From: Marsupella aquatica | Taxonomy: Eukaryota; Plantae; Marchantiophyta | Length of the DNA: 64,000 bases | NCBI GenBank assembly: GCA_973895155.1 | Contig: OZ316891.1 | Coordinates: 28,463,145-28,527,144 of the forward strand | Direction: 5' to 3' | Part shown: one piece after another, positions 1 to 40,026 of the stretch | Numbering within the stretch: the stretch's first letter is position 1 | Layout of the letters: each line of letters begins with the position of its first letter | Program-made: the position numbers and the translations under genes | Notes under the pieces: generated by a model | Databases searched by the model: none | Told to the model about the DNA's origin: nothing | The model's input: only the letters and a program-made list of their open reading frames with translations

Positions 1-470
1 CATCTGCATCGGGCTCCTCCTCTGGATAGTACTCTACATCATCAAATTCCTTATGGTTTTCACCGGACCCAACATCTTGCCCATCATCTGCAGAATCTGC
101 CATTGATGGAATGTCCTTCACTGCTAGTCTCTCACTGCGTCGTCGAGGTCCACTTGCACTGTCACTAATGCTTTGCCTAGCCCTTCTGTGCACTACACTT
201 CTCCTGTCTGGGAGCCTGCAAGCCATCCAAAAGCAACATCCATTGAACAACTCTAGTAAACATAGCTACATTCATTCCAATTAATGAGCAAAGTTTGGAT
301 AGGTTCTGTGGATGATAATTGTTCCCTTACAAAGCGGAAAATCCCTGTCTGAGCTCAGCTCCCAAAGCTGCCAGCCTCTCATCAACATATGCTGCACGTA
401 TCATGGCTTGCTTTTCAGACTCACTCATCTCATCATCATCTTCTTCCATCCTATTCAATGACAAACATTA
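1..470 (-). pseudogene. Probable 5' exons of the TnpA-like second CACTA gene
   Basis: Lies just downstream of the DUF4216 ORF. Its minus-strand translation (MIRAAYVDERLAAL) resembles the equivalent region of copy 2 (MEQRAYVKAKIAEL, 20194-20394). Confidence 0.45.
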
Positions 471-3400
471 TTGCATACGCATGGTGTCAGGCTCAGCCTC
501 TACAAATGGCTCCTCACCCTCCCAAGCATCCACCCGTGTTAGAGGAACATACTCTGTGCTTGTCTGAACAGTACCAACGTCTCCAGTACGTGGTTGTTCA
601 AATGCACTATGTCTATCTAAATGAAACTCTAGCTTTGAGCCTTCTACCCTACGATTTCTGGGCTGCTTATGACACACTACCCTCCAACCTGGGTTCTCTT
701 CCACATCCAAGAAGAAGGCCTGCTCCACCTGACTGGGATACACAAAAGGCTGCTCCCATTCGGGCAACTTGGACTTGAAATTGGCAAGCAGAAAGCCATC
801 CCGGTCTCTTTTCATACTGGCCCTGTTACCACGCCACACTTGTCTTACCCATTCACCCTTCATCAAAATTACAGGAGTGGATGTGGCTCCATAGTCAAGA
901 AGCCAGATATCGATCACTTAGTTCTCCTACATACCCCATCTGCAACACTCCACTACTTTCATCAGGGCTCTCATGCTGAAATACACAAATGAGCCCACAA
1001 TCATATGTTACCCTGGAAGAAGTTGTTTCATCTCTCACTCTATAGTGATTGCCATATGCTGCCATCCGTTTGTAAGACTTTACCAGCAACCGTGGAGGAT
1101 TGGAGAGGAGATAGACATCTGCATCCATATTAGGATGGCTTGCATGATGCTCTCGAACTGTGCATCTCAGCCATTCTGACATGCATGGGAATGTGGTAGA
1201 CGTGCTTGATTGAATAGCCTTCTGTGCCTCATACTCCCTACACATATAAGTGCATGGATTTAGCAATCAGAGTACACATTCTATACATATCTGCAATTTA
1301 GAAACCAAGGGCAGCAAAGAAAATTGAAAACAAGTTACATACAGGGAGACCAAAGTAGGTACTCACTCCAGCCAGGGTTGCATTGCATCAGTGTTTTCCA
1401 GAACGTACTGATGAGCCAAGTCTCTAATTTCGATGGTCAGCTTCACTGTGGTTGCAGCACCTTGTAGGACTTCCCCAGACACCCCTTCTTCTTCATCAGA
1501 ATTCCATACTCGCCTTGTCACATGCTCGTAATCTGCTAGGTACTCTGTGATGTAGCCCAGAGTTTCATCTTTTATATAACCCCGAGCCATACTTGCCTCT
1601 GGCCTATAGTAAGATCTCACATGACCCTTCATCAACTTCATGTACCGCTCCAGGGGGTACAACCAGCATGCTGTCACCGGCCCGTACTGGTCTATTTCTT
1701 CCACAACATGGATGAGCAGATGAGTCATTACATCAAAGAATGCAGGCGGGAAATATATTTCAAGATCACACAACAATAGTGCCACATCTTTCTTCAATTG
1801 GGGAAACTGTGCAGCATCCCACACCTTCACACAAACTCTGCGGAACACATCACTCAGACGCAGTATAACTTTACGCACAGGCTCTTGCATGAGGCCCCTC
1901 AGGCACAATGGCAGGACTTGTTGCATCATGACATGGTAGTCATGGGTTCATACTACCAAATTGGAATTTGTTATCCTTCACATGCCTCTTGAATGCACTA
2001 GCATAATCTGTGGGAGCTCGGAGTGAACTCAGCCTTGATAAAAAGGTCTGCCACTCTGTGTCTGTGCAACAATATGGTGCTTGGTACTTCAAAAACACGT
2101 TTGCCCTGCTCTGGTGTGATGTAAGCCAAAGGTGGGGTCGAATTCCCCTGTCCTGTAGATCCATACGTACAGAGCCCGTGTCCTTTTCTCCACTCAAAAA
2201 TCGGAGTAGACTCTCGCATATGTTCTTCTCTATGTGCATAACATCAATATTATGTTTGTTTGGATCAAACTCCTGCAACTCCGAAACATCAAGCAGTGAG
2301 CAAATCTCAATCTTCATAATACATACATACTACTTCATACAATCTAACAACTAAATTGACTGAATCACATATATGGGTTGTTGGGGAGAGGAGCTTACTC
2401 GCCAATACTCCAGCTGCAAGTCCAAAATGGACTGTCGTTTCACACCATACAACCTTGCAGGATCCCGTACTCCATCCTCTGCTCCTCCATCTGCATCATA
2501 TTGTGCCTTGGCAGCCCCCCAAGAACTTATTTGCTCCTTCTTCACTCGAGGTGGGGGACTGCGGAGCTCCGTGCGCTTGTTAAAATGTGCTATAAGATTG
2601 GGTCTACGTCTGTAAGGGTGATCAGAGGGCAGAAATCGACGGTGACCAAGGTATTTGATACACTTCAAGGACTTTGAATAGTCACTTGTCACATGGGGGC
2701 CACATCTTGTGCAAGCTAAATATCCTTTCCCAACCTGGCCTGCAATCATGCTATGGGCAGGGTAATCTGCAATAGTCAACATTACAATAGCTCTAAGCAA
2801 GAATGGATTGGCTTCACCAATCCTCTGCAGCATATCATATGTGAGCACTCCAGTGTACCATAGCTTTCTCAGTTCCTCTACTAGAGGAGCGAGATACACA
2901 TCTATATTGGCTGCAACAGCACTGTCTGGCCCTGGAATCAACAATGCCAACATTACAAAGAACCGCTTTGTAGTCAACCATGGGGGAAGGTTGTAATTCA
3001 AAAGGGTTACAGGCCAACAAGAGTACGCATTGTTCTTCTCGCCAAATGGGTTCACCCCATCCAATGATAGCCCAAGCCTAACATTCCTTCTCTCCCTAGC
3101 AAACTCAGGATACGCATCATCAATCAACTTCCATTGCTTTGAATCTCCAGCATGGCGTTGTAGCCCATCTCGACTTTTGTTCTTAGCTGTCCATGTCATC
3201 AACTCTGATATGGCACGGCTCCTGAACATTCTCTGCAGTCTGGGAATTATAGGAAAGTGACGGAGCACTTTTGCAGGTTGCTTGGACTTCCCATTATTCC
3301 GGTACCTGTGCTTCCCACATGTAGGGCATGTCAACTTCTTCTCATGTTCGTTTCTGAAAAGAACATGCCCATCAGGACAGACATGGATTGACTCATAGTT

Positions 3401-4216
3401 CAGCCCAAGTTTTGATATCAGTCTCTTTGCCTCATACATGTTTTTTGGCACTAGATTACCTCCTGGCAGCACTGTTTTCTGCAAGAAGGCCAGAACCTCG
3501 GACACAAAGATGTTTGGCACATTGTGGTTCCCACAAATATTCAGAAACATTAGCACAAATGCTAATTTGGAACAATTGCTTCCTGGGAACAGCGGATTGA
3601 AGGCCTCCTGAACTTCGGTTGGGGAGCCAAACATGGTGTCCACTCCAGCTGCAGCCTGTTGCCCAATCTCAAACTCATCTGAAGACTCGTGGTCATCACC
3701 CGGTGCAGTCTCAAACTCTTCTGCATCTTCCATGTCCTCCCGCATTGCATCCATGTCCTGGAAAATATCATGCACCATTTGCTGAACATTGATCCCTTCG
3801 TCTGCAGGCTGTTGAAGGACTTCGGACCCACCCAGTTGAGTCATCACATCTGCCAACCCACCAGTGAAGAACTGGTCTCGCCTTGCACTATTTGCATTCT
3901 CAAAGTCAGCCCTCCATTCCTCATCCGAAGAATCAGCCTCATTCGGATCGTTTGTAACACGCCAACGAGGGTGTCTCCCATGAATTGCCAAGTGCCCATG
4001 AATCTGCCTCAAGACTCTGGTGTGGGAGCCATTGCATTGAGTGCAAGGACATCTCATTCGTGAACTTGGACCTGACCGTGCCACTTTGGCCTGTTCCCGA
4101 TTCCAGAGCTTCTGGTCGTGTTGGGAAACCCTCATTGGATGATGTAGAGGCAACCTGGCAGATGTTGGATGGGTCCAAGGGGGAGGGTGACCTATGGACA
4201 CTCTTCTAGACTCCAT
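468..4216 (-). pseudogene. CACTA TnpD/Tnp2 transposase (Transposase_21, DUF4218, DUF4216), intron-containing and frameshifted
   Basis: Motifs MRCPCTQC, RNVRLGLSLDGVNPF, YNLPPW, DYPA, HNIDVMHIEKNICES, FPPAFFDVMTHLLIH, WLYPLERYM, PFVYPSQVEQAFF. Introns near 2275-2398 and 1240-1365. Frameshifts near 1940 and 915. Confidence 0.92.
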
Positions 4217-4605: not shown

Positions 4606-5208
4606 TTACCAGAGTTCATCTGGATACCCACCCTGTTCTTGATGGTAGTCACACCTGAGGTACACTGGCATGTACATCAGGTCATCAAGGAGTATGCCCT
4701 GGGCATACCAGGGTGGGGTTCGATCTGTGCCTACAAGAAGTGGTTGTAATGCCCTCCACTGAGGGGAGCTAGCTACCAAGTCCCTCCATTGTGTGCTAAT
4801 TAGTCTATATTTGCAAATGTCTTGTGCGTTTGACCACATAAGAATTCTGGGCCACACATCTGACAGCATTATATCATGTGGCAAACCAGGCAACAAGGAA
4901 GTCCCCACAACATTATGCTCTTCTATTTCATCTGCTGAAAAATAAGATTCATCGTCTCTTGCATCCTCAGGCGGTGCCAAAATATGTTTCAACACCAACC
5001 CATGCAGGAGAGTCCAAACAGTGGCCAGCCATGTGGCAACCCACAGGAGGAGCCTACATAGCGCCGGGTGATGTAGGAAAGGCAACATACCCACCAAAGT
5101 TTGCCGCCAAGATTTGAGCCCACCCCCAGTAAGTTTACAGTGACACCCCCAGGCAGTAGGAAACAACAATCCACCAACAGTAAAATAAGTCCAACTGCGA
5201 CCAACCAT
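4606..5208 (-). CDS. F-box-like protein (CACTA cargo)
   Basis: LLPGLPHDIMLSDVWPRI...ICKYRLISTQWRDLV matches the F-box consensus LP.D....I...L.......R.V...W..L. Hydrophobic N-terminal part. Confidence 0.65.
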   Translation of the reverse strand: MVGRSWTYFTVGGLLFPTAWGCHCKLTGGGLKSWRQTLVGMLPFLHHPALCRLLLWVATWLATVWTLLHGLVLKHILAPPEDARDDESYFSADEIEEHNVVGTSLLPGLPHDIMLSDVWPRILMWSNAQDICKYRLISTQWRDLVASSPQWRALQPLLVGTDRTPPWYAQGILLDDLMYMPVYLRCDYHQEQGGYPDELW

Positions 5209-6172: not shown

Positions 6173-6756
6173 GTACACACACCCTATGTGATGAGAGTGA
6201 ATATTGGAAGAATGGGTTCACCTGCCAATAGAAGGACACCAAAATTCCTGCTTTTTAAGTTGATCCGGTCCACTGTTGCTCAAGTCCAATTTTGATAGGT
6301 ACAGGGGATATGTGAACAATAAGTACTAGACCTGCACCGATGTAGGACATTGTTTGAGTATATACTAGGAAATCCATATCAAAGGTGAAATGAAGTGCAA
6401 CCAACTTGTCATGGCCGCACATACATATTTTTTTGTAAAGGAGGATACATTCAATGACAAACTTATAGGGCAATTTGATTAATTGCATGCCTGATGCTTA
6501 CAACTTTGAAGTCCTGTTTTAATTTAGCAGTCTGATGAGAGTGTTTGTGAAAATGACCACTCAGTCTAAATACTTCCAAGAAGGCTTGTAAGGATAAGTT
6601 TTTATAGGCATGTACCCAGCCAATAACGCCAGGGCACAGGATAAGTGCTCCCTGTATAAACTCACCTACCCAAGTCCTGTTCAAAATTGGAATCTCTGCA
6701 ATCTCCAAAAATAGTACATCCACATTAGGTGCCCTATGCATGTACAATGTTCAGCT

Positions 6757-7437
6757 TCACAGCCAAGATATGTGATCTCTCACAGGAGTGCGCGAGGTAG
6801 GATCAATGGCATGGCGATGACAATAAAATATCCATCGATCAACACCATGTGCAGAGTGATCATAGATTTCTCTATCACAAGCATAACCTTGTGCTTGACA
6901 ATCTTTCAAGCAATGATAGTGCCACATAGTGGGACACCTAGCATAGTGGACTATGTCAGCCCACTACTCATCATCATGCTCACAACATGCCTTGCACCTA
7001 TGAAGTGGGCAAGCTATGGCATGAGCAGGCAAACACTCAAAACAGAAAAACCTCACACAAAAACGGTCTGGACATTTCCTAACATCCGGTGCAGCATCAA
7101 CAGAGCCCTCATAGGACCCCAACTTCCCACACTGTGCACACTTAGCCTGCTTCTCCAAACAATCAGTGCACATCCAGTCTCCCTGGTGTGTTGACGGGAG
7201 GCCCACCCCTGGACAGTTGTTTTTTGCAGCAAGGTCAGACTCCGGGTTGAGGTGGAAATGCCTCATGCAAGGGCCCTCACAGATGACCAAGCTCCCACCA
7301 TCGTCACAAATGGCACAACAATGAGCTGCCTTCTGGAAAATCTGACTTGCAGAGAAGTTAGTAACATGTGGCCCAGGTACACCTGTGTTGCTCACCTCTA
7401 TCACATGCTTTTTCGCTGGAATTTTGGGGCGTGCCAT
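6757..7437 (-). pseudogene. Stand-alone EDM2-type PHD finger module, one premature TAG at 6964-6966
   Basis: CAICDDGGSLVICEGPCMRHFH ... CPLHRCKAC ... RCPTMWHYHCL ... FYCHRHAIDPTSRTPVRDHI, colinear with my recollection of the Arabidopsis EDM2 PHD region (CAICDNGG...CPLHKC...RCPKSYH...YCQEHEID...TPVRDHV). Confidence 0.82.
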
Positions 7438-8183: not shown

Positions 8184-8633
8184 CTACAGCGTGTGATCCA
8201 AACATGTGTAGACACCAAAAGCACCAGTGGTGGGGTCTGGGAGGCTAGGACAAGTGACATCGCCAGGCACACTGCAAGATGGTGAGTGGTTCCAGATGAT
8301 ACATTGTGCTCTATGCAAAAATCGACATCCAAGAGAACGGTCATCCAACTCTGGCCAAGATGCCCGACAGGCAGGACAGTCATATTGGCAACTGTGTACA
8401 CACCCTTGGGCCCTAATTTGTGGCGGGTCATGTACGAGAGATAGAAATACCAAGGATGTTGGGAAGGGTGGAGAAGTAGGTACAGGCTGGCTGTAGTTAT
8501 TCCTGGCAACAACAGGGTACTCAAAGTACCATGCAGACTGGGCAGGAAGGATCCCAAGTCTGACATACTCAAGGCGCAACCTCTCTGCCTTGCGTGCAAG
8601 CCGCACATGTTCAGCATTGCGGGTGCTCACCAT
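8184..8633 (-). CDS. Cys/His-rich hypothetical protein (CACTA cargo)
   Basis: ATG-initiated ORF with CxxC and CxxxHxxxC patterns. Homolog in copy 2 at 44933-45280. Confidence 0.5.
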   Translation of the reverse strand: MVSTRNAEHVRLARKAERLRLEYVRLGILPAQSAWYFEYPVVARNNYSQPVPTSPPFPTSLVFLSLVHDPPQIRAQGCVHSCQYDCPACRASWPELDDRSLGCRFLHRAQCIIWNHSPSCSVPGDVTCPSLPDPTTGAFGVYTCLDHTL

Positions 8634-12805: not shown

Positions 12806-14757
12806 TTCCCTCGCAAAAACTAGCAGTCGACACTAAACTGCACACCAGCAGTCACTCCTTGGATCCCTTCCCGTTGATCGGCATTTTTACCCTAACGAAA
12901 GTTCACACATGTTAGACGTCACTTAACACTTAGCACAAAACGGTCAGTAATCCCTAGTAAGTGTGCATGAGATTTTGTTTGTGGCCCTTTTAGTTTGGTG
13001 ATTTGGGTATTGGTTATAAAAACACCCAATGTCACCGGGAGTAAGACAACACCCACCCTTATACAAGAATGCCTAAATTTGATTAAACCTTACAATACCC
13101 ATTTGATCACAATTAATTAAATAATGAGACCACATATTTAGCGAGCAGGCCTAGGTAGCATAGGGTACTTTAGGGCCGGGCCCTCCATTGTGTGGCTGTT
13201 TGGCCTATAGGGTATAGGCCAGGAATACAGATCGACAGGTCGGAGTTTAGCTCCGGCCCAATTGTTCACTTCAAGGTTTAATTAGTTAATTAGGTCGGGC
13301 CCGGGTTACACCGTACGTCCATACCGTGCACCATAATATGTGTTGGCTATATAGTAACCGAACTCATCCTTATCCTTATTACAACCCTAAACATACTAAT
13401 AGGGATAAAAGAAGGTAAGTATGACCCCAAATTATGCCAAATCCAAATGGTAACATGACACATATTAGGTGCACAATATGTAATGGTCAGTTTAGTGACT
13501 AAAATGGCTTGCCTTCCTTCCCGCCCTTCCTAATTGGTCATAGGAATAAGACAGCGACCAAAAAGTGAACAGTTGTATATGTTTTGGAGTCTTATGTTGA
13601 CTTAAGAATGACTCAGAAGTCGTATATAGTCACATAAATATGACTGAAGTGTGGGCTGCGCACAATGGTGATCAAGCCTGTCATAAGTGGTCGGGTCACA
13701 AAACACCCCGGTTTCTACTAGTGTTTGGTGTGCTGTTTTGGGTGGATAAATTGAAACCTAAAAACATGGAAATAATTAATTAAAAAATTCAATTATATTT
13801 GGTGTGCATTGGTTTCCAAGCCTCGAGGGTTTCATTTCCACAAAAATGGAACATCATGTGAGACAAAGTATAGGGTCATTTTATTGGTTCAAAGGAAAGA
13901 TTTAAGAATTTTCTATGAATAACAATAGGGTTTTTTAAATTTAATTTTGAGACTTATAAGAACATTAGAGTACTTATAACCAAATTTTTGGAATATTCCA
14001 ACTTTATAGAGGTTTATAGTTTTTAAAAATTCTTACATTTTAGGGTATCCGGGGCCTAAAACATCGCAGGTGATGGGGAGCCATGCATCCATATAGTGAG
14101 ACCCCCGAGTTCCAACCTAGAAGAAAAGTGGGAACTAATCATGAGCCTTCATCAAAATATGTGTCTAGGCACTGTCTGATCTGTCCATACACCCCAATCT
14201 AAAATATGTCTTCCCAAGCTGCCCACTTACCTGTCCAAGATTAATAAATTGTAATTAAAAATAACTACAATTATTCACATTTAAATTATTTCTCTAAAAA
14301 TTTAAGACTTAAAAGTAAAAATTACATTTCCCTGTCACTCGATTATATTTGCGGACTCTATGATGTGGTGGTGCTATCTTGTGTCTCCAATATGATCTAT
14401 GTGCAATGCATGGGTTATTGAACATGACCACGACAATTGTATAGTTGGGATCACACATACCATGCCTTGATCAACAACTACATTATAAAATTTAAATATT
14501 TTAATCTTGTCTAAGTTACATTTGTCTTGTCTTGACATTTTTTTCTAATCTTTACATATAGGTTATCTCAGTCTCCTTTCACATGTCTACTTTGCCTTGA
14601 CATCTTTTTTTGACATTGATATATATTTATCTAACGTCCCGTCTCATGTACCACAACATTTTTCTCTTGATTTTTCTCACCCTCAACGTATATCTTTTCT
14701 CATCTTATCTTTTTTCTCATCTTGCCATTTTTTCTCACTCACATCTTTATCTCACCA

Positions 14758-20466: not shown

Positions 20467-22251
20467 TCATGGCACAGGCACACTGTTGGCATCTGCATCT
20501 CTGAATTCGCCTCCTTCAGCAAATGCATCTACCCTTGTCACAGGAATGAAGTCCCCGCTATCATGAACTACAGGCACTTGGTCTGAACGCCGACGATCAA
20601 AGGCACTATGAGAGTGTAAATGAAACTCAAGGTTTGATCCTTCCATCCGACGTTGCCTGGCCTGTATATGACACACTACACGCCAACCTGGGGAGTCTTC
20701 CACATCCAGGAAGAAAGCTTGCTCCACCTGACTAGGAAACACAAATGGCTCAGACCATTCGGGCAATTTCCCTCTGAAATTGGCCAGCAAGAAACCGTCG
20801 TTGTCTCTCTTCATGGTAGCCCTATTACCAAGCCAATCCTGCCGCACCCATGAACCTTTCATAAGAATCACAGGACTGGACACCGCCCCATAGTCCAGAG
20901 CCCATATGTCAACTAATTCTCCCACATATCCCATCTCCATCCAGGCCCTGTCGTGATTGTGGCTCTGTTGCTCAAATACAGTGATGAGCCCACAGTCATT
21001 CGTCACCCTGTAGGCACTGTCACCATCCTTCACTCGAAAGTGATTCCCATATGCTCTCATCCGTTTGTAAGTCTTCACTTTCAGGCTAGGGGCATTAGAC
21101 AGTAGGTAAACATCTACATCCATGTCTGGGTGGGTCTCATGATGCTCTCTAATTGCCACTCTGATCCACTCCATGAAACCTGGAAAAGTTGTTCTTGCAG
21201 TGGGATGGGCCGCCTTCAATGACTCATACTCCCTGAACGAACAACCACACAGCATTAGCTTGGGTAAACATGAACAGGCTGAAGGAGAAAACCACACGAA
21301 CACAACATTTAAGCTCATGAACTGGATTATAGCACATGTATGCACTCACTATATCCAGGGTTCCATCACCACAGTGTTGTGCAATACAAAGTCATGTGCC
21401 AAGTCTCTCATAGATATGGTCAGGTTCTTTGTGGTTGCAGCCCCTTCCAGTACTTCACCTATCACCCCTTCCTCCTCATCAGAATTCCACACCCTGGTCT
21501 TCACATGCTCATATTGTGCTATGTATTCGGTCAGAAATCCCAGAGTCTCATCCTTGATGTAACCTTTAGCCATGCTTGCTTCAGGTTTGTAATATGTTCT
21601 CACGTGACCTTTGAGTAGCTTCATGTACCGTTCCAAAGGGTACAACCAACGAGCACTCACAGGCCCAAATTGGTGTAGCTCTTCCACAACATGGACAAGT
21701 AGGTGGGTCATGACATCAAAAAATGCGGGAGGAAAATAAATCTCCAGGTCACACAGCACCTGAGCGACATCTTCTGTCAGTTGTGGGAAGTGTGTTTCAT
21801 CCCAAACCTTCACACAAATACGATGAAACACATCACTGAGTCGCATGATCACAGTACGAATAGGCTTCTACAACAGGCCCCTTAGGCATAAAGGCAACAC
21901 CTGTTGCATCAACATATGGTAGTCATGGCTTTTCATACTACCAAGCTTTCTAGTCATGATATGCTTCTTGAAAGCACTGCCATAGTTTGAAGGAACCTTC
22001 AAAGAACTCAACCTCTGCACAAATAGTTCCCACTCTGTGTCTGTCAGAACATAGGGCGCTTGGTACTTCAAGAGCACATCAGCTCTGTGGGCATGTGGCC
22101 TCAACCAAAGATGGGGTTTCATTCCCCTCTGTTCAAGATCCAATCTCACTGAACCAGTGTCTTTCTCTCCACACAAGAATCTGAGTAGACTCTCACAAAT
22201 ATTCTTTTCAATGTGCATAACATCAATGTTATGTTTGCTTGGCTCAAACTC
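20467..22251 (-). pseudogene. TnpD 3' exons of CACTA copy 2 (DUF4218, DUF4216)
   Basis: HNIDVMHIEKNICES, MKSHDYH, FPPAFFDVMTHLLVH, PFVFPSQVEQAFF. In-frame TAG at 21868. Confidence 0.9.
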
Positions 22252-23010
22252 CTGGGGTAATTGTAACGTGCGAGCAAACAGTAGAATTTTTGCTCACACG
22301 GGCAAGATGTCACCTTGTATTGGGGCCCAAAAAAGGTCTGGAATATTCCTCGCTAGCATGGAGACCCTGTTCGATCAATAAATATAGACGGCTACCCATG
22401 GACGATTCTAGTCCCGTGAACGCAATAGATCAAAATGACATATCTTCAGGCCAGCAAAATCGCTAGTCTAATGATGCCAACACATTGAGCCACTCATCCG
22501 AGGTACGGTCTCCACGTACAGGCTTCCACATGTGAAAATTCCCACCCGAGGAAGAGTAATAACAAAAAAGTACTGCGTGATTCCTGCGTGAAAAGAATCA
22601 ACGTGTCATTACTGCCGAGGAAAGGAGGATTAAGGCCGTTTGGACACTAATTAAGTCACTTGCAAGTGAACGGGACACTTACCGTTCGAACTAGACTCGA
22701 ATCCAAGGTGTCGAACCGTCCACTTAAACAAATCCGCTAGCCCCAAAACCACCAGTCTTCCAAATCATTCTCCTGATCACTTCCACCACGTCCGACTTGA
22801 TCTCTTTCATTCGGAACTGCTATCAGTGTTCCAAGTTCTCAACACTCTCCAGATCTAGTTCAGGTAAGCGCGGGTCTATGCTCTGAGCTGTTTTAAGGGA
22901 AGAACTCTCCGACAAGGCATGATATTCATCATATTTCATCGTGAATACTGTTTCCATTTGTTGAATCCTGTTCTATTTAATCATTGTTTGGGTTTTGTAA
23001 GTGCAGAGAA

Positions 23011-23439
23011 ATGTCTGGTGTTCCAAGAAATCCTCCTCAGGGGAAATGGCGACTTGAGATCCGTCGTTACAACCCGGCAACAGATGGCCCGCTTGAAGAT
23101 GACTCTCCTCCGAAGCAGAAACCCGATGCAGAGACTATGAAGGTCTCCGCCGGCAGTAGTGTCCCAACCGAACTCGGTCAATCTGTTGGATCGTCATCAT
23201 CATTGAGGAGAACACCTACTCCTCCAAAGTTAATTCCAGCAGCAAAGTCTCCACCGAAGCCAAAGGTGGATACCACACAGCGCGAGGTTGTATCGAAGAG
23301 GAAGAGGCTCGCAGAAGAGGAGCAGTATTGGATTGAGAGGGAGATCTATGACTACTGGACCGAGGAACGCCTCGCCTCTTTGGATTATGATTCTGAGTCA
23401 GACACTAACTCCGATGCATGGAAGGCGTCCAGCCCCTGA
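23011..23439 (+). CDS. Small MULE-borne protein with NLS-like KRKR and a conserved acidic, aromatic C-terminus
   Basis: ATG ORF of 142 aa. KRKRLAEEEQYWIEREIYDYWTEERLASLDYDSESDTNSDAWKASSP is conserved in the second copy (61599-62035). Confidence 0.7.
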   Translation: MSGVPRNPPQGKWRLEIRRYNPATDGPLEDDSPPKQKPDAETMKVSAGSSVPTELGQSVGSSSSLRRTPTPPKLIPAAKSPPKPKVDTTQREVVSKRKRLAEEEQYWIEREIYDYWTEERLASLDYDSESDTNSDAWKASSP

Positions 23440-24062
23440 GGGTAGAGTCAGGTTGTGGATTTACTGAAATTTTTGTAGTTACAAGCGAACCACATGTCCT
23501 AATGTACTTTCAATATGTATGAGAAGTAAAGTTTGGGCGGTCCTTTCATTTCTATGTGTTTCTCTGGAATGCCATTTTGTACATAGTACTTTTATTTTGA
23601 AGTCACTGTTGGACCCTTCCCAGACTAGCGATATCGCTAGTATAGAACTGTGTTCATCTTCGATAATCAATTCGATCGAGTATTACCACAACAACTTCAG
23701 GGAAAACTTCCCTCCCTAAACCCTAAACATCCTGTCACATCCTGTCCTAAATTCCGTTGATCAGACTAGCGATCTCGCTAGCCAAAAACTGGCGTCATTT
23801 TAATGATCAAACCGTGAACTCTATAGAAACTTGTCAATAGGTTAACACGTATGAAAGTAGGATGTTTCTGTCAGGATGCAGCAGACTTCCTAAGACTAGA
23901 GAGATCGCTAACCTTAAACAGCAAACGCAAACACCATAAAAGTTACCATTATGGACCTCGCTAACATTATGATTCACTCGGTGAAAACAGATTGATATTT
24001 GTGAAACCACAAACTCGAGTAATCCATCCCACCACCCTATAATTAGCATCTCCAATAAACGA

Positions 24063-27000
24063 CTAGTCCCCTATCTGTAACGGAATTAAACTCCTCACTT
24101 CCCCAACAGTCAGAATTGGTTGTTTGACAAGGTCGTCCTTCTCTAGGTTGAGTGAAAACTTGTTTAAATACACCCACAGCAGATGTTTACAAGACATGTA
24201 TGGTTTCCCTCGTGTATGCCTCTTATAAAAGTCTTCACAAGAACACGAAGGGAAACAACAGATTTGCACCCAATATGTGTGCGGAACTTGTGAATCAGTC
24301 TCGTGAGTGGCGATCAAGTATCTCCAACCCCATCCATTTCCGGTAGTTACCTTCTCATTTCCGACAACTCTCATGTATTCTTGTGTAGCGGAAACGATGC
24401 GCTTGAGCAACTCTGGAGTATTGCTGAAACGCTGTCTTGCACCCTTACCATTTTGGGTTTTCAACCGACGGTCCACATTAGTTAGATCAATTCGTTCGGC
24501 GAATGAGTTAACATCAATTCGTAGGTTGACCCAATTGGGGGACGGGAACTCTCCAACTTGATTTGCATCCACATAGGAGAGTCCACTGATCTAGAATCCT
24601 AATCCCAGCAGAAACTCTATCTCGGGATGGAAGAGGCAAGTCCCACGCTGAACCTTGAGCGACTCGGGTGGGGGGGGGGTAGTTGAGCTAGAGTTCTGCA
24701 TCCTCGGCTCTTGTGACACTTATTATTAGGACAGAAGTACAACAACTGGCGATGTGGAGACGATAATCGCAACCCGTGAATGGCGACTCCAACAATTCCC
24801 CCTTGCGCGGACTTACATCCAGTCTCCTTGATGAGATTTCTACATTCATCTCTTCCAAAAACGCTTCGGTCAACCGACCCGTTGCAAACAGGTCCAGCAC
24901 CTCTACCGCTTCGCCTGAGATGCCAGGTCCCATAAGGAACATCAACCTCTCGGATGGAAGGGATCCTTTGGGGGGCATCCCGATGGTCATCCCCGACATC
25001 ACACGGAGGTTGAGTCCCCATCTTCACGGTATCATTGACATTACGACTTGCATCATCACCATCATCATCTGAAATATGGATAACTCCAGTAGAACAACCT
25101 CCGATAGGTGTTGCCGAAGTTGTATTATTTGCTACTTCTGGGTCCGCAGAAGTCTCCGAAACATTGACGAAGCGAAATTCAGGATAGAGATTACGCCTTT
25201 TTAGTCCTGAAGGAGAAGCTGTTGTGCGTGACACCTTGTCATGTCTGTGGGAGTCATTCTCGTGGATTACAGCTGAAGCTTTCCCTTTCCTCTTTGTGGA
25301 TGTTGTTCGGAGATCGCCATGTAATGGAACTGTTCTATAGAATTCATACTTAGCTGAAGACTCAAGCAAAAGATTTGCTGCCTTTTCGTAAGCATCCATG
25401 GATCCCATAGCATCGGCGTTCCTATATGCTAATTCAAAAATGGTCGGCCCCTGGCCTCTGTGAACACCTTCACTGTAGGCAGTAAAAGCAACAATTTGCC
25501 CCGCAGCACGATTCTGGTCCACCTCACATGCTTCAATCAATCCCACTAGTTTCTTCATTTGGCAGGATCTCATGGATGCATGGACTGATTCCGCTCCAGT
25601 ACAATTTGGCATCAAGGCTGACTCCATTGCGGTTTGCGTCTGCGAAAAAGTAGTCCACAGTCAGACCTGATATGCTAGCGAGGTCGCTAGCAAAAACAAT
25701 GACGTCAAAGAGAAATGAAATTGGACACTTACAACGCGGATGAAGTTCCCCCACTGCCTCCACCTCACGACCCACCAAGATAACCATCCTTGGAGAGACT
25801 TCAATTTCCCAGCATAGCAGTTTCCTTCCTTCCACCAACGATGGATTTCGTCAGCAACACGGTAGGCCTGAACATATGTTGGTGCTGTTCTCAGCCTTTC
25901 CCACAGTTTATAGTGCTCTCGATGGCGATCTTCCCGAATACCCTCCAATGTGTGACAAGAAGAGATTGAGCAAAGTGAAAGCCATCACTGTGCTCCTTCT
26001 GTGGGTGACGGACACCTCCAAAAAAAACATTTCGAATGGCGATCCATCCAGCCTCGGCATTATCGGCAATAAATCCTCCAATGAGTGGGTCATGCACATC
26101 ATGATCAGAGGCAACTTCAATCATATATCTCCATGCGGTTTCAAGAGATAAGGAGTCCTCCGCACGGAGCTCACAAGTGAAGATGGTACAAAGGGACCTG
26201 TAATTATGGTCGTACACATGGGCGCTGAAAGTCAGCCACCCAGTGCTTATTCTCCGCATTACATCAGAACTGACCCATGCTCCTTCCAGCTCACCTCCAC
26301 TCTTCATCTGCCTGAGAATATCGACACCAGAACCTGGGCCATTTGTACTCATTTTGAAGACATGAGCCCTATCGGTCTTGCTCCCCTGCCCAGGGAAAAG
26401 GTACCTCTGAACATAAGGAAAATTATTTCGTGCTTGCATCTCACGAAGAGAATCCAACTCACCTTTTTTTGGGTTATCCATTTTCATGCTCCGGAATATG
26501 GCCTGGAATTTCTCAACAGTGGACACAACCTTCATCGATTCCCAAATCTCTCTCTCTTCTTCTTTTGATAGTTCTGAAGAAGACTCTGGATGCAAAAGAG
26601 AAACCAGGTTTCCTATAGACTTGTTAAGAACACGCCCTGGCGTACACACGGGATTCGCTTTATGAACACCAGAAACTATCTCCTCCGCCTGCTGTTTTGC
26701 CAATCGAGATTTCCCCTTCCAAACAACGTGGTCATGGAAACCCATGTGAATAGCCAATCGAGACATATGTTTCGCAACATTTGACTCAAGAGACGGCTTA
26801 GGATAGACATACAAAAGCTTAGCCGGACATTCACGGATGCAGAGAGGCCTCTCCTCACAGAATCCGCACACCAACCCTCCTTCCTCCACAAGCTCACCAA
26901 GATGAAACGGCTCAGTAAATTGTCCCTTTCCTTGGAAAGAAGAGTCATTTTTTGAACCGGTGTGCTTCAACTTTCTACAAACCAGATTTTGGCATTCAAG

Positions 27001-27777
27001 TACACCGGCACATCTGACTTTTGACACAGACTAGTGATTGCGAGGTTTGAGATTAGCTGAAGTTGTGAGAAGTCTCGTCCATGGATAGCCGTCATTATCC
27101 CTATCCATGTCTTGAAGACCATATCCTCGACGAAATTGACCTTCCACCGGAGGAAGCTCAAAAACGCAGTTTCCATTGTAGGAAGTGGGCAAAGTCTGCA
27201 CTTGAATCTCCTTCCAATCGTTTCCCCTGCGGAAATTTGCCAACTCGCTTGACCCAGTAATATTGAGAAAGGCATCATATGCACTAACTCGATAAAGAAC
27301 TGGCTGAGATTGAAACTTGTTTTGACTCACTGCTTCAAAAACGGATTTCTTAGAAGACTTTGTCGACACAGAAGAGACATCCCTACCCACACTCTCAGGG
27401 GAGATGTCAATAATTTCTGGTACTGCAGGTGACGGGCGAGTCGGGGATTCTGGATCGGAAACATTGATATGTGCAATGTCATCCTTACATGAGACTAGCT
27501 CTACATCTGAACCACACTTCAGGTCCCAAGCTCTTTCTGGCAATATTCCTGAACCATTATCCGACACCTCGTGACTTCTGGATCCATCCCGAGAGTAAAG
27601 AACGAACAACTTCCAGATGAAATCATCTTTCAAAAGCCCAAACCTTGATGAGAGAAAAGACTCCTTTACAGAGATAATAGTATTCTCCGGAACATCCAGA
27701 ACAACAACATCACCCGTCGTCTTTCTCTCGATCACAACCTTCGATCCCAATGAAGACATGCTGGAAGTTTTGGACAT
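24063..27777 (-). pseudogene. MULE-type transposase with N-terminal GCM-like zinc domain and C-terminal SWIM finger
   Basis: CAGVLECQNLVC...CGFC...C...HMGFHDH (GCM/WRKY-like); DDE core SSDVMRR...HVYD...GFIADNAEA...FHFAQSL; SWIM CSCEDF...CKHLLWV. In-frame TAG at 27031, frameshifts at ~25950 and ~24670, intron at ~25667-25731. Confidence 0.8.
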
Positions 27778-28452
27778 TACAGTCTACAGCAATCCCCAAT
27801 GTGAGATACTTCACTCTCTTCTTTCTCCAAATACATATGAGGAAACGTGCTTGTGTAGGTGTTGGACTCAACGTATTTATTTAATAAATTCCTCTTATTC
27901 CCGTTATCTGACCGTTATTTTGTCTTATATGACACTATTTGCGGAATGATAAAGCTAGCGATCTCGCTAGCTCAATGAACCAAGTAAAATTGTTCAAATC
28001 CTTACAAAACACCCTTCAGGAGTTCATGTATTTAGTGGTCATTTTTTGGCTAGTGATGTCTCTAGCAAAAATATTTCATCATAAGAGACAATTGTGACCG
28101 TTTATATCCGTTGGAATTGGTCAACGGGTACCTATATGTCAACAGTACGGTACAGTACCGGACACCTGTCTCTTTGTCATTAGATACTTTTCTTTCAGTC
28201 GTGAGTTTGGTGGTTCGTATTTCCAGAAGTACATGTATACCTGACGGTGTCTGAAAAATGATTGCGAGAAGAGTCGTATAGAATATTTGTATCTCTTTTC
28301 ACGACCGGGCGCATCATTCAGGTGAAAGCAACAGACGAGGGTACGATTCTGTCTTTGATTGGAAGATCGATTCTCGGGTTTTTTTATGTTCACAAAGCGT
28401 GTCGCCCTCGACCTTGACCTGTTCATACCCTTATCACTTCACGGACCCCCTG

Positions 28453-31400
28453 ATGGAGCCATTGTCTTCACCCGAGAGCTTGTCATCAATAGGATCGTTC
28501 AAGTCAGTCGAGTCAAGCCGAAGGGAGACCAGGTCTACAGTGAACAAGAAGGCGCTCTAGGCGGGATTGAAAACACCGAGGAGGCCCAAGATGGTGAACC
28601 AAGTAGATGTTGTGAATCCAACGTTTCAACTTGGAGCTTCAGAACCCTATTCTGTTGTCATCAATCGCCATCTTTTCCCTTTTGGAAATGACGAATTTGG
28701 ATTCCCGCTCGCTCCTCCGAGGATTCCCCTTTGCAGAATGCGAAACATGCAGATCGTTCGGTCCTTGCAAACTAACTCGACTGCGATCGAGACACTCAAG
28801 AATGAATTCCGGATGCAGGGATACATCGAAGATGCGCCTCGATTTTACGTCCAAATGACCGGCGAAGATGGCCTTGTCCAGATGTGCGAGGATGTGATTC
28901 GGGAGTCGTGGGATGACATGTGGATTCTTCAGAATGAAGAATTCGAGAGGGAATGTGATTCTCACAAAGCTTTCAAAATTTTGAAAGACAAAATGTTCTG
29001 TGTTTTCGATGGAAATCATCGTCTGTACTCATGGATGCAGCTTGCGGACGAGAATCCCCATGATGTCAAATATCATCCTCGAGTTGTTTGCCGAATTTTC
29101 AAGGATGACAAGAACTCATTCGTGCAGATTGAGTCGGCAATGCATGCGCTGAATAGGTTTGTTTCTTTTCCTTCAAGCTGTGAATTGTATCTAAAATTCT
29201 TTCATTTCCTCTTGTTAGCGATCTCGCTGACCTGTTTCTTTTGTTCAGGTTGACTCAATGTCACGTTGAGAATTCTTGGGTCCTTGAAGCAGAGAGAGTC
29301 CACAAGGTTCTCAGTAATGACCTTTCTGTATACAAAGATATCATCGATGCAGACAACTACAAACTTTTCTAGCAGAAGATGGCAAATATCAAGAAATCGG
29401 CTTGGTATTCGAAGAACATGGCACTCGATGCCTGCACGTACATTCTGTCTGCTGCTAATATTGCAGCGCAGACGGAAGATTTGAAGAAGAAGTTTCAGTT
29501 GAAAGAAGCGCAAGGAGAACCTCTTTCAAAAGCTGCGCAAGACATGGCAGTCAAAGACATGATGAAGGAGCAACTGGCAGATTGGAATGTGAAGGTGCCA
29601 AAGATTGGACCTCTCCTAAATCCTGAGTTTGGTGACTTTTTCCAGAAGTGTGTTGAGATGCACAACTACTGTGAACATGAGAGGAAGGAGGCCCAACGAA
29701 CAGACGATAAAGGAAGGGGTAATGTGTCATGTGGTCTCGATCGTGCGAGGCTATTTACGGGTGTCTCGTCGTTGACTCCCCAGCTCAGATGTGTACTCCT
29801 CGAGGCACAATGCAGACCTGAGCTTCGCAAGAAGTACTTCCACCCTGGTCAATTCTTGGACAGCGAAACAAAACTTTGGCTTCACCGATGGGCTGTATGG
29901 GAGCAGGTTGAGTCAATTTGTTCTTCGCTCATGTCTGAGATTATTTCAGAGTTGATCCCAACTATTCCAGATGCAAGGATCCTTACTTCATCTGAGAAGA
30001 CAAAGCCATCGCTGATCCTTGACATAGAGGAGGACTTTGAAGATTTCCAAACGAGAGTGAAATCTCGTTTTTTCAAACAGATTTGGCCACCAAAGTCGGG
30101 TGAGAAGATTGACATCTCACTTTTTCGGAGGAGGGCGAAGAGATATACGTATCGTTTTTTTGTGGATAGAGAAGTTGCTGACAAAACATATTGGTGGTCC
30201 TATCCTGCTTGCTTCTCGCCTTGGATAGCAGGAGTAAAAGAGGATCCGACCTCTGTTAAATATGGAGAGTACTCGATGTACCCATGTGAGGGAGTGGAGG
30301 CTCCAAGGAAGATGAGTGAGTGGGAAGTCCTTCACTGTCCATGGTATTTAGAATCAGACAAATGGGCAGTGACATTTGACACAGCAGAGAAGGCAGCATT
30401 TCATATGATAAATTGAGGCTTGATACCAGAGTCGTACATTACAGAGTCCAAATTAGCTCCTGCAGAAGCCGAGGCTGGCGGATGTGATGCAATGGAGAAA
30501 GTTGTTCTTGGTGTAGCTGCCATTGTCGACCGGAGTAGATCGAGGAGACCTCGGAAGGTGTCGGTGAAGGACACGTCCAAAGATGGATCAGTCTTGTCTG
30601 GGAAGCAAAGCAGGTCTTTTTCTCCTCTTTTTTTCATACCTCATTCGGAGTAATTTTGTCTCAGTCACCTGTCTGACATTAACATGTTTTTCAGAGAAGA
30701 GAAAGGCTACAGCCTCTGGCAGTTTGAAGAGTGGGGCGGATGATGGAGAAGAACCCAAGTCTCCTGATGTTGAGGTCACAACAAAATCTGATGTGGACCT
30801 GGGTTCAATCAAGCGTTTAAAGAGGAAGCGCAATGTCCAAATTCTCTCCGACTCGGATGAGGAGGAAGCATGCGTCGCGCAAGGAGTAGCACGAATGTGT
30901 GGTCTTAAGAAGGACGGTGAGAGGCATTTCTTGGCAAAGAGCAATCTCACGGAAACTGCAAACTCAATTAGCCAGAGGAAAATAAGACCTCCCTGGATGG
31001 GCGATGCGGATCAGTGGTTGTCTGGAATGAGCAAATCAAGCAAACACCCAAACGCCGTGATGATCAACGGAAAAAATTATGCTGGAATTGGTGCTCACTT
31101 GGGTTTCATATTCCTTCCCACGGGTCATCGAACAAGCATCACAGACCGGGAGGTCCCGAAGTGGAATGTTTGGAGTGAGAAATTACCATATTATTTCTTT
31201 GGAGTCATGCTTCCGATGCTTGCCGATGATGGTTATGTCGCAGTTCTTCACAGCTCTGACTATAACCATATGAGGCAAATGTTTTCTGCAGTCGAACAGA
31301 AGAACAAATTTAAACATGTCCAGCAGTATTCGGTTTTGCTTTCATCTCCTTTGTATCAGGCAGATATGGACATCGAGGTAAGATATCCTCCATATTTTTT

Positions 31401-31977
31401 GTGAAATTTTTGCTAGCGAGCTCGCTAACCAAAAGTGCCCATTTCTTACATATTCTCGTTTTCAATTCAGGTGGTTACTCTCATTATGGATGTCTTCTGC
31501 AAGGTGGAATTCTCGGCAAAAGTCCCGAAACATACAGGATATGTTCCAATGACTTCCTTGGAGGATGCCCGCCATAAATCGATGTTGAGTGTTTGCTACC
31601 CAAAAACTGATCCCAGTCCCAGGGCGGCTTTCGCAGGTTCCAATAGATTGTCAGTTGGGTTCATGCAAGCCGTAATGGAGATCCTTACTTTGCCAAAGGA
31701 CATTGTCATTGACTGGACTGTTGGAGATGGAAGTGCTTTTGCCGCTGGGGAATACGCTGGGAGATTTGTTGTGGGTGTTGAAGATCAAGACATTCTTCAT
31801 CTGCGTGCACAAAGAACTTTGGCAAATGTGTTGGATAGACATGCCCAGAAGTTGAAAGGGGCCGCAGACCCGAAGAACGATGATCCCAATGATGAAGGGT
31901 CGGATGATGAGTTCACCATCCCAGGAGATGATCAGGGAGGACCTTCAGACGAGAAGGATGAATTCGACCTGGAGTAA
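28453..31977 (+). pseudogene. ParB/Sulfiredoxin-like N-terminal domain fused to a beta-class N4C/N6A DNA methyltransferase-like domain; 3 introns, 3 premature stops
   Basis: Exons ~28453-29156, 29249-30612, 30695-31377, 31471-31977 with GT-AG introns. ParB-like VRSL...IETLKNEFRMQGY...VFDGNHRLYSW. MTase-like RLSVGFMQAVMEILTLPKDIVIDWTVGDGSAFAAGEYAGRFVVGVED. Stops at 28558, 29370, 30414. Confidence 0.7.
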
Positions 31978-32148
31978 AGCACTTGGCCTTTGATGTAGAA
32001 CTCCCTATTTGGTGTTTTTCTTTTGTTTGTAGAATTTTCGGATGTTTAGTATTGATCCGACTCTGGTGATTTCTTCAGTGATAGGTGTTCGGATTGGTTT
32101 TCGGAGGAGAGATTCCGTCTTCGAAAAGAAATCGAGGATCATTTTCTT

Positions 32149-32418
32149 GTGACCCCTGAGAAGGGATTTGCGCTTCCATGCTATGCTGAAAAGACTGCAA
32201 AGGAGGTTGATGAAGCGCCCGTCATTTTGACTTGGGAGGGGAAAGGTCTGCGGTCAGTGAGGGGTGTTCGGAAAGCCTTTTACTACCCTCAGTTCATAGA
32301 TGATGAGGCTGGGACTGTAGCACAGTATGTTGACGGTTCGGCTGAGGAGACTGATAGGGAGTCCAGTAGCGATCCTAGTAATTCCTCAGATGATTTGGAA
32401 TCAGAGGATTCTCAATGA
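32149..32418 (+). CDS. Possible additional acidic ORF or alternative exon inside the MULE
   Basis: Open frame downstream of a possible acceptor TTCTTCAG (~32078). No recognisable motif. Confidence 0.25.
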   Translation: MTPEKGFALPCYAEKTAKEVDEAPVILTWEGKGLRSVRGVRKAFYYPQFIDDEAGTVAQYVDGSAEETDRESSSDPSNSSDDLESEDSQ

Positions 32419-32878
32419 CTCATGGTCAATTTCAGATGCAATCTCATTCCAGAAGATATTTGTCATACCAAAGTTTTATTAAAGATGGATTGTGAAAGGT
32501 TTTTTGACCTGGTTTTGTTGACAGTGATGATGCCTTTTCATTAAGTGCAGTGTTGTGAAGATCTCAAGTTTTTCGGTTGTGGATATTTCAGTATCTGCAT
32601 TTTCGTTTTCCTTAACTGTTTCACAATATATATCGACAATCTTACTTGGGAATGCACCTTAACTACCCTCAAATTACGAGCAAACTTGCCTTGCTAGCCT
32701 GATGTCCTCGCTAGCAAAACTCCTGTTTGCTCGCACAATAGAATACCTCAAACTCCTGCATCATTGCAATGCAAAAGCGTCAGGAAATGCCTCAAGTTTA
32801 GTCTCTCTCTTCGAAATGAATGCACATGCTCTGAACCAAAACATGTATCCCAATTAGCATCAACTCCAAGAGGCTTAC

Positions 32879-34710
32879 CCTCCAGTACTTGAGCTCCAAG
32901 TCCAATATGCTCAGTCTTTTTACACCATATCGCTTTATTGGATCACTCACTCCATCTTCCCTGCCCCCTCGTTTGATATAGTCATCCCTCAGTGCTCCCC
33001 ACTGCCTGATCTCCTCTTTGGTCACTCGTGCCGGGGGTCCACGTTGCTCAATCTCATTGCCAAAGTGTGCAATCAGTGCCTGTCTTTCTCTGTAAGGGTG
33101 ATCTGCCTTCAGAAAATGACGATGGCCCATGTATATCACTTTCTGCAGGGCTCTGGAGTACTCACTGGTGACATTGCGCCTACAGATAGTACAAGCACAA
33201 TATCCTTTTGTTGTTTGGCCTGATATCATCCCATGGGCTGGGTAGTTAGCTATAGTCAGAATGACAATGGCTCTAAGGATGAATGGGTTTAACCTCCCAA
33301 GCCTCTGTAGGACATCATATGTGAGAACTCCTTCCTCCCAAAGTTTTCTCAATTCCTCCACTAGGGGAGCCAGAAACACATCTATGTTGGCAGATACAGC
33401 ACTGTCTGGCCCTGGTATCAGTAGGACCATCAGAACAAAAAATCGCTTTGTAGTCATCCAAGGAGGAAGGTTATAATTCAAAATAGTTATAGGCCAGCAC
33501 GAAAATTTGTTGTTCTTGTCTCCAAATGGGTTTACCCCATCCAATGACAGCCCAAGTCTGACATTCCTCGGCTCAGCAGCAAATTCGGGATACATCTCAT
33601 CTATGAGTTTCCATTGCCTTGAATCTGTAGCATGTCGTTGTAGCCCATCATCACTTTTCTTGTCAGTTGCCCAAGTCATCATCTCCGAGATGGCATGGCT
33701 TCTGAACATCCGCTGAAGTCTGGGAATGAGTGGAAAATGATGAAGTACCTTGGCAGGAACCATAGACTTTCCTGAGTTCCGATACCTGTGCTTCCCACAC
33801 TTAGGGCATGTCAACGATTCTTTATACTCCTTTCTGAAAAGAACATGCCCATCAGGACAGGCATGGATCGAATCATAGTTCAATCCAAGATTAGATATGC
33901 ATCTTTTTGCCTCGTACATGTTCTTGGGCAAAATATTACCATCTGGTAGCACAATTGTTCGCAAGAATGCCAACAACTCAGAAACCAAAATGTTGGGGAC
34001 ATTGTGGTTGCCGCAAATGTTCAGGAACATGATGACAAATCCCAGTTTAGAACATTTGCTACCGGGGTACAAAGACTTCCTGCCTTCCTGCCTTCCTGTA
34101 TTTGTAGGGGAGAGCCAAACATCCCATCATGCCCAGGGGTTTCCTGCCCTATCTCAAACTCATCAAGAGGCTCTTCGACAGGGGGCACACTTGCATCTGC
34201 AGCCGTATCCTCTTCGTTGTCCAGCCCATCATGAAATGCATCCAAGTCTTGGAAGATGTCTCTCACCATCTCTTCCACATGAATTCCTTCGTCACGTGGT
34301 GCTGCCTGAGCACCATCCCGTTGGAGAGCTGACAACCCACAGAGACCAGCTACAACATTTTCAAATGCACCAGGCAGAACCTCACTTGCCCGTCTTGCAG
34401 CATTGGCAACATCAAATTCTAACCTCCACTCCTCGTCAGAAGAATCTTCCTCTGCAGGATCATTCCAAACTTGATGTCGTGGATCTCTTCCATGAACCGC
34501 GATATGCCGCCAAACCTCATTCAGACCCCTGGTACGGGATCCTTGGCAGATTGCACAAGGGCATCTCATCCTACTGGCTCCTGAAAGTCTGGTTTGTAAC
34601 CTTTCACGCTGCCAAAGCTTACTATCATGGCGTGATATCCTTGTGGGATGATGCAAAGGCAGTGCCTGTGCCCTGGGCTGGGTCTGGGGAGGGTGGTGAC
34701 CAGGGTGCAT
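32879..34710 (-). pseudogene. TnpD exon 1 of CACTA copy 2 (Transposase_21), frameshifted near 34075
   Basis: MRCPCAIC, RNVRLGLSLDGVNPF, YNLPPW. Ends at the donor TGGAGG|GTAAG. Confidence 0.9.
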
Positions 34711-36016: not shown

Positions 36017-36265
36017 GTACACACACCCTCCTTGGAATGGTTTTTTTTATAAATTTTAATACCGTGAAAGACCCCACGGATAGGGGGAACAACAGCCCTT
36101 AATACAGGAACAGCAACAGCACACTAGCGAGCCACAAAGAGAGCCCAAAAGCACAAAAGAGAGCATCAAAGCCCCAGGGAGAGCCCCCCCTCAAAGAAGG
36201 GAAATAACACCGATCAAGAGAGCACCCATGCCCTTCCCACAGCAGCCCCCCAAAAAGCAGACCCC

Positions 36266-39966: not shown

Positions 39967-40026
39967 CCCCTCCCCCCCCCGCTGCTCCCCAAGTCGAGTG
40001 GTGCACTTGGTCAGCACACCGTCACC

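Follow-up and report, generated by a model that had tools for sequence, protein, structure and literature searches.

Histone-tail mimics such as those of influenza NS1, the SNAG domain of Snail, G9a and LIG1 place a short peptide in the register of histone H3 on a protein that is not itself a histone. Several DNA transposons, in turn, carry accessory genes that concern chromatin, including VANC in VANDAL elements, TET/JBP genes in fungal DNA transposons and SET genes in the MuDR and Harbinger elements of oomycetes, and the TET/JBP genes also move between transposon lineages (PMC12730594, PMC6446971). Pack-CACTA elements, for their part, are known to capture genes passively (PMC13317346). Among host proteins, EDM2 binds H3K9me2 and acts with ASI1 and AIPP1 (PMC7472560, PMC9910501, PMC7529245), and the ASI1-AIPP1-EDM2 (AAE) complex promotes distal polyadenylation (PMC7472560). 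The domains of EDM2 include an N-terminal RFD, acidic domains, a PGR and an N6-adenine methyltransferase-like ELP (PMC7529245).

The gene that we describe here resembles VANC, TET/JBP and SET in being an accessory gene on a DNA transposon, and that it is aimed at host silencing is our proposal. Unlike them, it encodes a PHD protein without a catalytic domain and with no domain in common with them that we could see, and it would act as a reader and a histone mimic. It resembles the NS1, SNAG, G9a and LIG1 mimics in carrying a short H3-register peptide; unlike these, it is encoded by a plant-type DNA transposon, and the peptide is fused to its own candidate H3-tail reader. A search of the literature for a transposon-borne PHD, BRCT or H3-mimic protein, mostly outside subscription papers, Repbase reports and supplements, found no description, and a term search of an Arabidopsis atlas of transposon products returned no mention of PHD or histone (PMC13547354).

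The whole stretch of DNA analyzed (the window, 64 kb) contains two CACTA elements, each with a stand-alone PHD ORF placed between its CACTAG end and its TnpD gene. Their features are as follows.

468..4216, minus strand: TnpD transposase gene of element 1, with Transpos_assoc, Transposase_21, DUF4218 and DUF4216 in successive ORFs
4606..5208, minus strand: ORF with an F-box-like stretch, present in element 1 only, except for its first 27 codons
5300..6172, minus strand: twin-BRCT ORF of element 1, 290 aa, intact, a member of the shared cassette
6757..7437, minus strand: stand-alone ORF of element 1 for a candidate H3 mimic joined to an EDM2-type PHD cluster, 226 codons, with a premature TAG at codon 158 (6964-6966)
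8184..8633, minus strand: Cys/His-rich ORF of 149 aa, located upstream of the PHD ORF and unmatched in Pfam
13400..13723, minus strand: 5' end of element 1, with the CACTAG terminus at 13723 and GACT subterminal repeats
20467..34710, minus strand: TnpD gene of element 2, interrupted by ~10.5 kb of inserted DNA (about 22254-32747)
35144..36016, minus strand: twin-BRCT ORF of element 2, frame intact, separated from its upstream DNA by the LINE
36030..42955, minus strand: LINE (DUF4283/zf-CCHC ORF1, endonuclease, RT) between the PHD and BRCT ORFs of element 2
43552..44205, minus strand: PHD ORF of element 2, 217 aa, lacking 27 bp of PHD1 near 44077 and, with them, one zinc ligand
49500..49805, minus strand: probable 5' end of element 2, with the CACTAG terminus at 49805 and GACT subterminal repeats

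Read from its 5' end, element 1 thus carries the Cys/His-rich ORF, the PHD ORF, the twin-BRCT ORF, the F-box-like ORF and TnpD, which starts ~9.5 kb from that end. Membership in the CACTA superfamily is given by the TnpD domains (Transposase_21 at E 5e-68, DUF4218 and DUF4216) and by the CACTAG termini with subterminal repeats at 13723 and 49805. GACT clusters occur at only three places in the 64-kb window, 13723, 49805 and 54815. Within the window, no two ends could be paired by a shared 3-bp target duplication; element 1 extends beyond the window, and a search of the window for the 3' end of element 2 did not find it. The LINE is near-complete, and its 17-bp target duplication lies exactly over the BRCT start codon of element 2; the ~10.5 kb insertion has inverted ends and a 10-11 bp target duplication and is probably Mutator-like. 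Given that the LINE sits on the BRCT start codon and that this insertion splits TnpD, element 2 is dead. Its copy of the Cys/His-rich ORF (44933-45280) is internally deleted.

The window also holds features outside these two elements. A third CACTA remnant (14758-16720) is more distant: its DUF4216 and DUF4218 regions share about 28-30% identity with those of the other two, and it has ATCGGA repeats and a separate CACTAG end. Beyond a tandem repeat of about 700 bp (51561-53759), two CACTAG ends stand back to back at 54780 and 54815, separated by 34 bp, and a long minus-strand ORF at 57441-59375, lacking any confident Pfam match and with a coiled coil at its C-terminus, is possibly a retrotransposon accessory gene. 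Within the ~10.5 kb insertion (about 22254-32747), several ORFs lie on both strands without clear Pfam matches, together with repeated palindromic sites.

Both PHD genes in the window are broken. The first-pass annotation of this DNA had described one 226-codon ORF in two copies with complementary lesions, and this description held: the stop at codon 158 interrupts the first copy, the second has lost 27 bp in frame, and an intact relative (P0002) has 226 aa and 78% identity to the window gene. Since P0002 is intact and of the same length as the window gene, the full-length form occurs in nature. The same annotation called the gene intronless, which is true of the ORF itself, but in both elements a YAG acceptor-like site lies 2 nt ahead of the PHD ATG, and the ORF may be spliced to this site from a 5' leader, although such sites arise by chance too. 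The BRCT ATG has a YAG 11 nt upstream; the Cys/His-rich ORF at 8184-8633 also has one, 2 nt before its own ATG.

We compared the PHD protein with EDM2 and with other PHD proteins. Residues 40-223 of P0002 aligned with spinach EDM2 (33% identity, pairwise E 3e-30), a match that includes the EDM2-type C-terminal segment, while matches to NSD2 and NSD3 covered only the first three quarters of the protein; the EDM2-type identity claimed for the ORF is thus borne out. Like EDM2 and EDM2-like proteins, to which it is about 30-33% identical, the family has the whole cluster of 2.5-3 atypical PHD fingers and keeps the zinc ligands. Unlike EDM2, which spans about 700-1800 aa, family proteins have 220-230 aa, and the 226-aa ORF has no RFD, acidic domains, PGR or ELP; a Pfam search of the window ORF gave PHD-type matches only. 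The family has also lost a linker of ~20 residues, has replaced the PHD2 His ligand by Cys (12/12 rows), and has gained a Trp before the PHD3 His (12/12) and a new His (11/12). An acidic residue within the 8 positions before the first zinc ligand was found in 0 of 15 family proteins, compared with at least one in all 44 EDM2-like host proteins (mean 2.8). With the PHD1 acidic flank absent in 15/15 and the PHD2 His replaced in 12/12, reading of the same marks as EDM2 is not supported. Because PHD1 is without this acidic K4-binding flank, the H3K9me2 specificity of EDM2 is not to be assumed for it, and because all other EDM2 domains are lacking, the roles of EDM2 are not transferable. On this comparison, the family protein derives from the EDM2 cluster yet is not an EDM2.

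The nearest solved structures by sequence were the NSD2/NSD3 cluster and AIRE PHD1 (PDB 29hg, 7crp, 7cro, 1xwh, 2kft; E 1.7e-12 to 1e-3), all found with profiles, as a single-sequence search of the PDB gave no match. Unlike NSD2 and NSD3, the family has no SET or PWWP domain. AIRE PHD1 holds R2 of H3 through D312 and unmethylated K4 through D297, while backbone pairing joins the H3 residues R2, K4 and T6 to C310, L308 and G306 (PMC2261226). Counterparts of the R2-binding acid D312 and of the strand-pairing G306 and L308 were kept in 11/12 family rows, while the D297 counterpart was His or Gln in 12/12. PHD1 could therefore still hold an H3-like amino end, with a changed K4 pocket, although this last replacement means that binding of the tail may be weak; the AIRE-type backbone bonds would survive a Pro at the third position of the mimic. 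AlphaFold single-chain models folded the cluster (mean pLDDT 73.6 and 79.5), and in finger-only structure searches the modelled first finger superposed on PHD fingers (best Z 5.6, rmsd 2.3, 53 aligned). Residues 1-10 had a mean pLDDT of 30 in one model and 59 in the other, and no strand was assigned to them.

Sequence and profile searches recovered 29 distinct relatives of 93-257 aa. The transposon setting was seen for the two window genes, and the relatives are known from their sequences alone. Fourteen were full-length, 7 had apparent frameshifts and 8 were truncated, some perhaps by contig ends, and a share of 15/29 truncated or apparently frameshifted is as expected of decaying mobile copies. 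The 21 relatives whose sources were shown came from Logan, JGI or ENA only, without a functional name and without an NCBI or UniRef record (0/21), unlike the host EDM2-like genes of liverworts, lycophytes and ferns, which have such records. No fused form appeared among the best 150 of 377 matches, nor among 6 matches of a longer-protein search (a weak test), in line with the earlier description of the domain as stand-alone; the six long proteins found by profile were all EDM2 or EDM2-like. In the ESM Atlas, the PHD family had no cluster; the clusters returned were EDM2/NSD-like, at up to 0.90. A metagenome scan with the family alignment A2 gave no match, and a 19-residue metagenome match to P0007 (L001), lying opposite an unrelated long ORF, was rejected as chance.

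In a tree of the finger cluster (41 rows under LG+C20 PMSF: 14 family rows, namely 13 relatives and the window gene, 24 EDM2-like rows and 3 NSD-like outgroups, with partial and near-duplicate rows left out), the family came out as a single clade (100/100), its stem 1.67 changes per site long. This clade, within which there are many divergent subfamilies, lay outside every supported land-plant EDM2 clade and joined the EDM2-like proteins at an unsupported node; a quick tree of 66 rows gave the same result, with a warning of long branches meeting. The highest likelihood among the trees tried made the family sister to short liverwort EDM2-like paralogues (p-AU 0.80), and topology tests rejected neither this nor a sister relationship to long liverwort paralogues (0.63) or angiosperm EDM2 (0.15). 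The short liverwort paralogues (Marchantia MARPO_0005s0286, Riccia R1sor_003797 and Calypogeia CAM6087769.1) were also among the best-scoring long proteins; like the family, they begin with M-A-R, and they end soon after the cluster, but unlike it they have about 450-530 residues before the cluster and keep the His ligand and the acidic flank.

Across 12 full-length or near-full-length rows, pairwise identity was 31-82% (median 42%), 26 of 39 Cys/His columns were at least 90% conserved, and members shared start and stop positions despite this divergence. The first-pass annotation had allowed that the copies might evolve neutrally, as a passively captured fragment; with a family long kept under selection, a 100/100 clade and conserved zinc ligands, passive decay of a recent capture is unlikely. 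Judged by these alignments and trees, this is an old, selected, stand-alone family and not a freshly captured or drifting EDM2 fragment. A separate set of short EDM2-like proteins (P0042, P0058, P0073, P0047 and P0041; 270-386 aa) clusters with EDM2 of seed plants, which means that reduction to the PHD cluster took place more than once; the P0047 cluster is named in wheat and Aegilops.

The first-pass annotation had the ORF made almost entirely of PHD cluster. The whole EDM2 cluster is indeed matched, but a conserved H3-like N-terminus had been overlooked. Both window genes read A-R-P-K-I-x-A-K-K after the Met, in register with residues 1-9 of H3 (H3 sequence from PMC12266144), at the following positions.

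7408..7434, minus strand: H3(1-9)-like peptide of element 1, codons 2-10 (A-R-x-K-x-x-A-K-K), from H3-register scoring
44176..44202, minus strand: H3(1-9)-like peptide of element 2, from H3-register scoring

We scored 24 heads, which are the 28 sequences with a head minus 4 near-duplicates. Their best scores against H3(1-10) summed to 384, compared with 204 +/- 17 for shuffles that kept composition (z 10.8, a pooled value that overstates the independent evidence because family members share ancestry), and 13/24 heads were individually significant (p<0.05). Control motifs (H3 21-30, two H4 pieces, an NLS and reversed H3) gave z of 0.6-2.5, with 1.3 for the NLS and 0.6 for reversed H3. Permutations of the H3 decamer scored as well in 3 of 20,000 cases, and with the first four residues fixed the p-value was 0.006. 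Scores of at least 17 were reached by 15/24 family heads, 6/160 other proteins and 2/81 other ORFs of the window. After removal of the 4/24 heads that scored below 10, K4 was present in 20/20, R2 in 18/20, A7 in 14/20 and K9 in 13/20, in windows picked by the H3 score itself. The H3-register match thus goes beyond composition and is kept across relatives, as expected of a histone mimic.

In most members, the first zinc ligand follows the motif at a distance of 29-40 residues. Its positions 3, 5, 6 and 10 vary freely, and the H3 spacing (R2, K4, A7, K/R8, K/R9) persists while the rest of the head is unalignable; in the window genes, R8 is Lys and S10 is absent. The motif directly follows the Met in both window genes and in 9/24 best windows, one of which (P0169) is not H3-like; P0004, P0165 and P0169 were the scored heads, out of 24, without a recognizable H3 motif. 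In about one-third of heads, the motif starts at least 7 residues in, with Ser for Ala1, so that these heads have no free H3-like amino end; one subfamily with such an internal motif often has Ser/Thr at position 10. Several host EDM2-like proteins (P0020, P0023, P0024, P0025, P0030, P0038 and P0044) start with M-A-R-(T/V) and have Ala at 7, without the K4 of the window protein, which has equivalents of both K4 and K9. Such starts occur in Marchantia, Riccia, Calypogeia, Selaginella and Mesotaenium, and most of the sampled long EDM2 proteins of seed plants have an acidic stretch at the start instead.

We also compared the two elements along their length (window 5134-8811 versus 34981-36029 and 42956-45440). 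Identity was ~95% over the BRCT-PHD region, ~85% upstream of it and 71-74% over the transposase. Likewise, dS between elements 1 and 2 was about 0.05 for the PHD and BRCT ORFs and about 0.7-1.0 for the transposase cores (dN/dS 0.2-0.3). The elements had been taken for two copies of one family, but with such transposases they are not sister copies. Instead, because the cassette is so much younger than the transposases, cassette exchange or local conversion is suggested, and these values suggest two old CACTA lineages with a recently exchanged or converted PHD-BRCT cassette. As with TET/JBP, the cassette appears to move between transposon lineages.

Comparison of dN/dS over copies, which the first-pass annotation had proposed, gave omega 0.65-0.90 for the PHD ORF (p 0.2-0.5), with little power because both genes are broken; the finger core of the two window genes gave 0.55-0.77, never significant. 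The PHD core differed at 18/540 positions, versus 39/585 in the non-coding DNA just downstream (two elements, p 0.014), a difference that may stem from a conversion gradient. For the BRCT ORF, dN/dS between the two elements was 0.44-0.58 (p 0.03-0.11). This twin-BRCT ORF, of 290 aa and with its frame intact in both elements, is a second candidate accessory gene. A search of the literature for CACTA elements with BRCT gave no match, and the matches of the BRCT protein in the ESM Atlas were all generic BRCT clusters, below 0.9.

The question is then what this protein does for the element. Our main reading is that it belongs to an old family of small proteins in which an H3-tail look-alike is joined to a remodelled EDM2-type PHD cluster, and that it is likely a CACTA-borne chromatin decoy that weakens host silencing, to which we give a probability of about 45%. 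The likeliest of the alternatives, itself unlikely, accepts a selected, transposon-borne PHD reader and takes the N-terminus for a basic NLS whose H3 likeness is inherited chance. The heads are rich in Lys and Arg, four motif positions vary freely, 3/24 heads have no motif, and a single ancestral motif inherited by all would raise the pooled score; nevertheless, the H3 spacing survives amid an unalignable head, the NLS and reversed-H3 controls score near background (z 1.3 and 0.6), and residue order matters even with the first four residues fixed. It is rather improbable that the PHD and twin-BRCT proteins are transposition accessories, with the reader tethering the transposase to chosen chromatin and the tail serving as an internal latch on PHD1. 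The two ORFs do travel together, the BRCT ORF has the dN/dS given above, the motif stands 29-40 residues ahead of the first zinc ligand in most members, and the M-A-R-(T/V) starts with Ala at 7 on host EDM2-like proteins hint at an ancestral self-ligand. However, the cassette sits with transposases 0.7-1.0 apart in dS, which argues against a tight fit to one of them, no fusion to a transposase was seen in the best 150 of 377 matches or the 6 longer-protein matches, and members with an internal motif have no free amino end of the kind that the PHD pocket anchors (PMC2261226).

Less probable again is that the family consists of ordinary host genes in a plant lineage with poor annotation, and that these CACTA elements recently took up one of its members as a passive passenger. 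This would agree with a cassette far younger than the transposases, with window-gene dN/dS values not significantly below 1, with the F-box-like scrap that element 1 also carries, and with a transposon setting known from the window genes, but it sits poorly with the lack of NCBI or UniRef records for the 21 source-shown relatives, with 15/29 of the relatives being broken and with the many divergent subfamilies. A host EDM2 fragment in neutral decay is very improbable: both window genes are broken and omega reaches 0.65-0.90, but the stem is long, the fixed changes (PHD2 His to Cys in 12/12, the lost linker, the new Trp and His) are clade-wide, and start and stop positions are common to members at 31-82% identity, so this reading is largely refuted by intact, deeply diverged relatives. 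We give equally little weight to the earlier read-through idea, here taken to mean that the protein would replace EDM2 within the ASI1-AIPP1-EDM2 complex and favor full-length transcripts that reach TnpD. It has an EDM2-type PHD cluster, TnpD of element 1 begins ~9.5 kb from the 5' end, and distal polyadenylation is what the AAE complex promotes (PMC7472560). Read-through is poorly supported, however, because the protein is without every other EDM2 domain (RFD, PGR, acidic and methyltransferase-like ELP regions), and the PHD1 acidic flank is lost; a reader so reduced would be more of a competitor of EDM2 than a substitute for it.

The anti-silencing or decoy role that the first-pass annotation had listed among several possibilities is strengthened by the H3-tail look-alike, at the level of sequence. 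The element position, the EDM2-type origin, the single clade with its diagnostic changes, the long-term conservation and the H3-like N-terminus are observed, and the mechanism beyond them would run as follows. The 5' leader of the element would be spliced to an acceptor just before the PHD ATG, and loss of the first Met would expose A1-R2-x-K4 as in H3. PHD1, with its R2-binding acid and Gly/Leu strand kept, would bind either genuine H3 tails or the tail on a second molecule of the same protein. The presented tail would occupy host proteins that act on the H3K4/K9 region, such as unmethylated-K4 readers, K4 demethylases and K9 writers, and heterochromatin would then form less well on the element. 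Conservation of the mimic is stronger around K4 than around K9, so a K4-centred target seems likelier. By analogy with the known systems, the family protein likely works like a transposon counter-silencing factor.

We hold more tentatively a fuller version of this reading, in which CACTA transposons of a plant lineage would carry and swap a counter-silencing gene, an H3-tail decoy joined to a retuned EDM2-derived reader that docks on chromatin or polymerizes tail to finger and soaks up host H3K4/K9 readers and enzymes, a viral-style mimicry undescribed for plant transposons. Because the protein is small and intact natural versions such as P0002 exist, the decoy claim is directly testable. The A-R-(T/V) start on EDM2-like host proteins outside the seed plants is, in its own right, a possible self-regulating element. 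The counter-silencing proteins described in these two articles (PMC12730594, PMC6446971) act on DNA (VANC, TET/JBP) or are enzymes (SET). If the decoy reading is true, counter-silencing would here take another route, through a histone-tail mimic that carries its own reader, and a transposon would have turned a host heterochromatin reader into its own tool.
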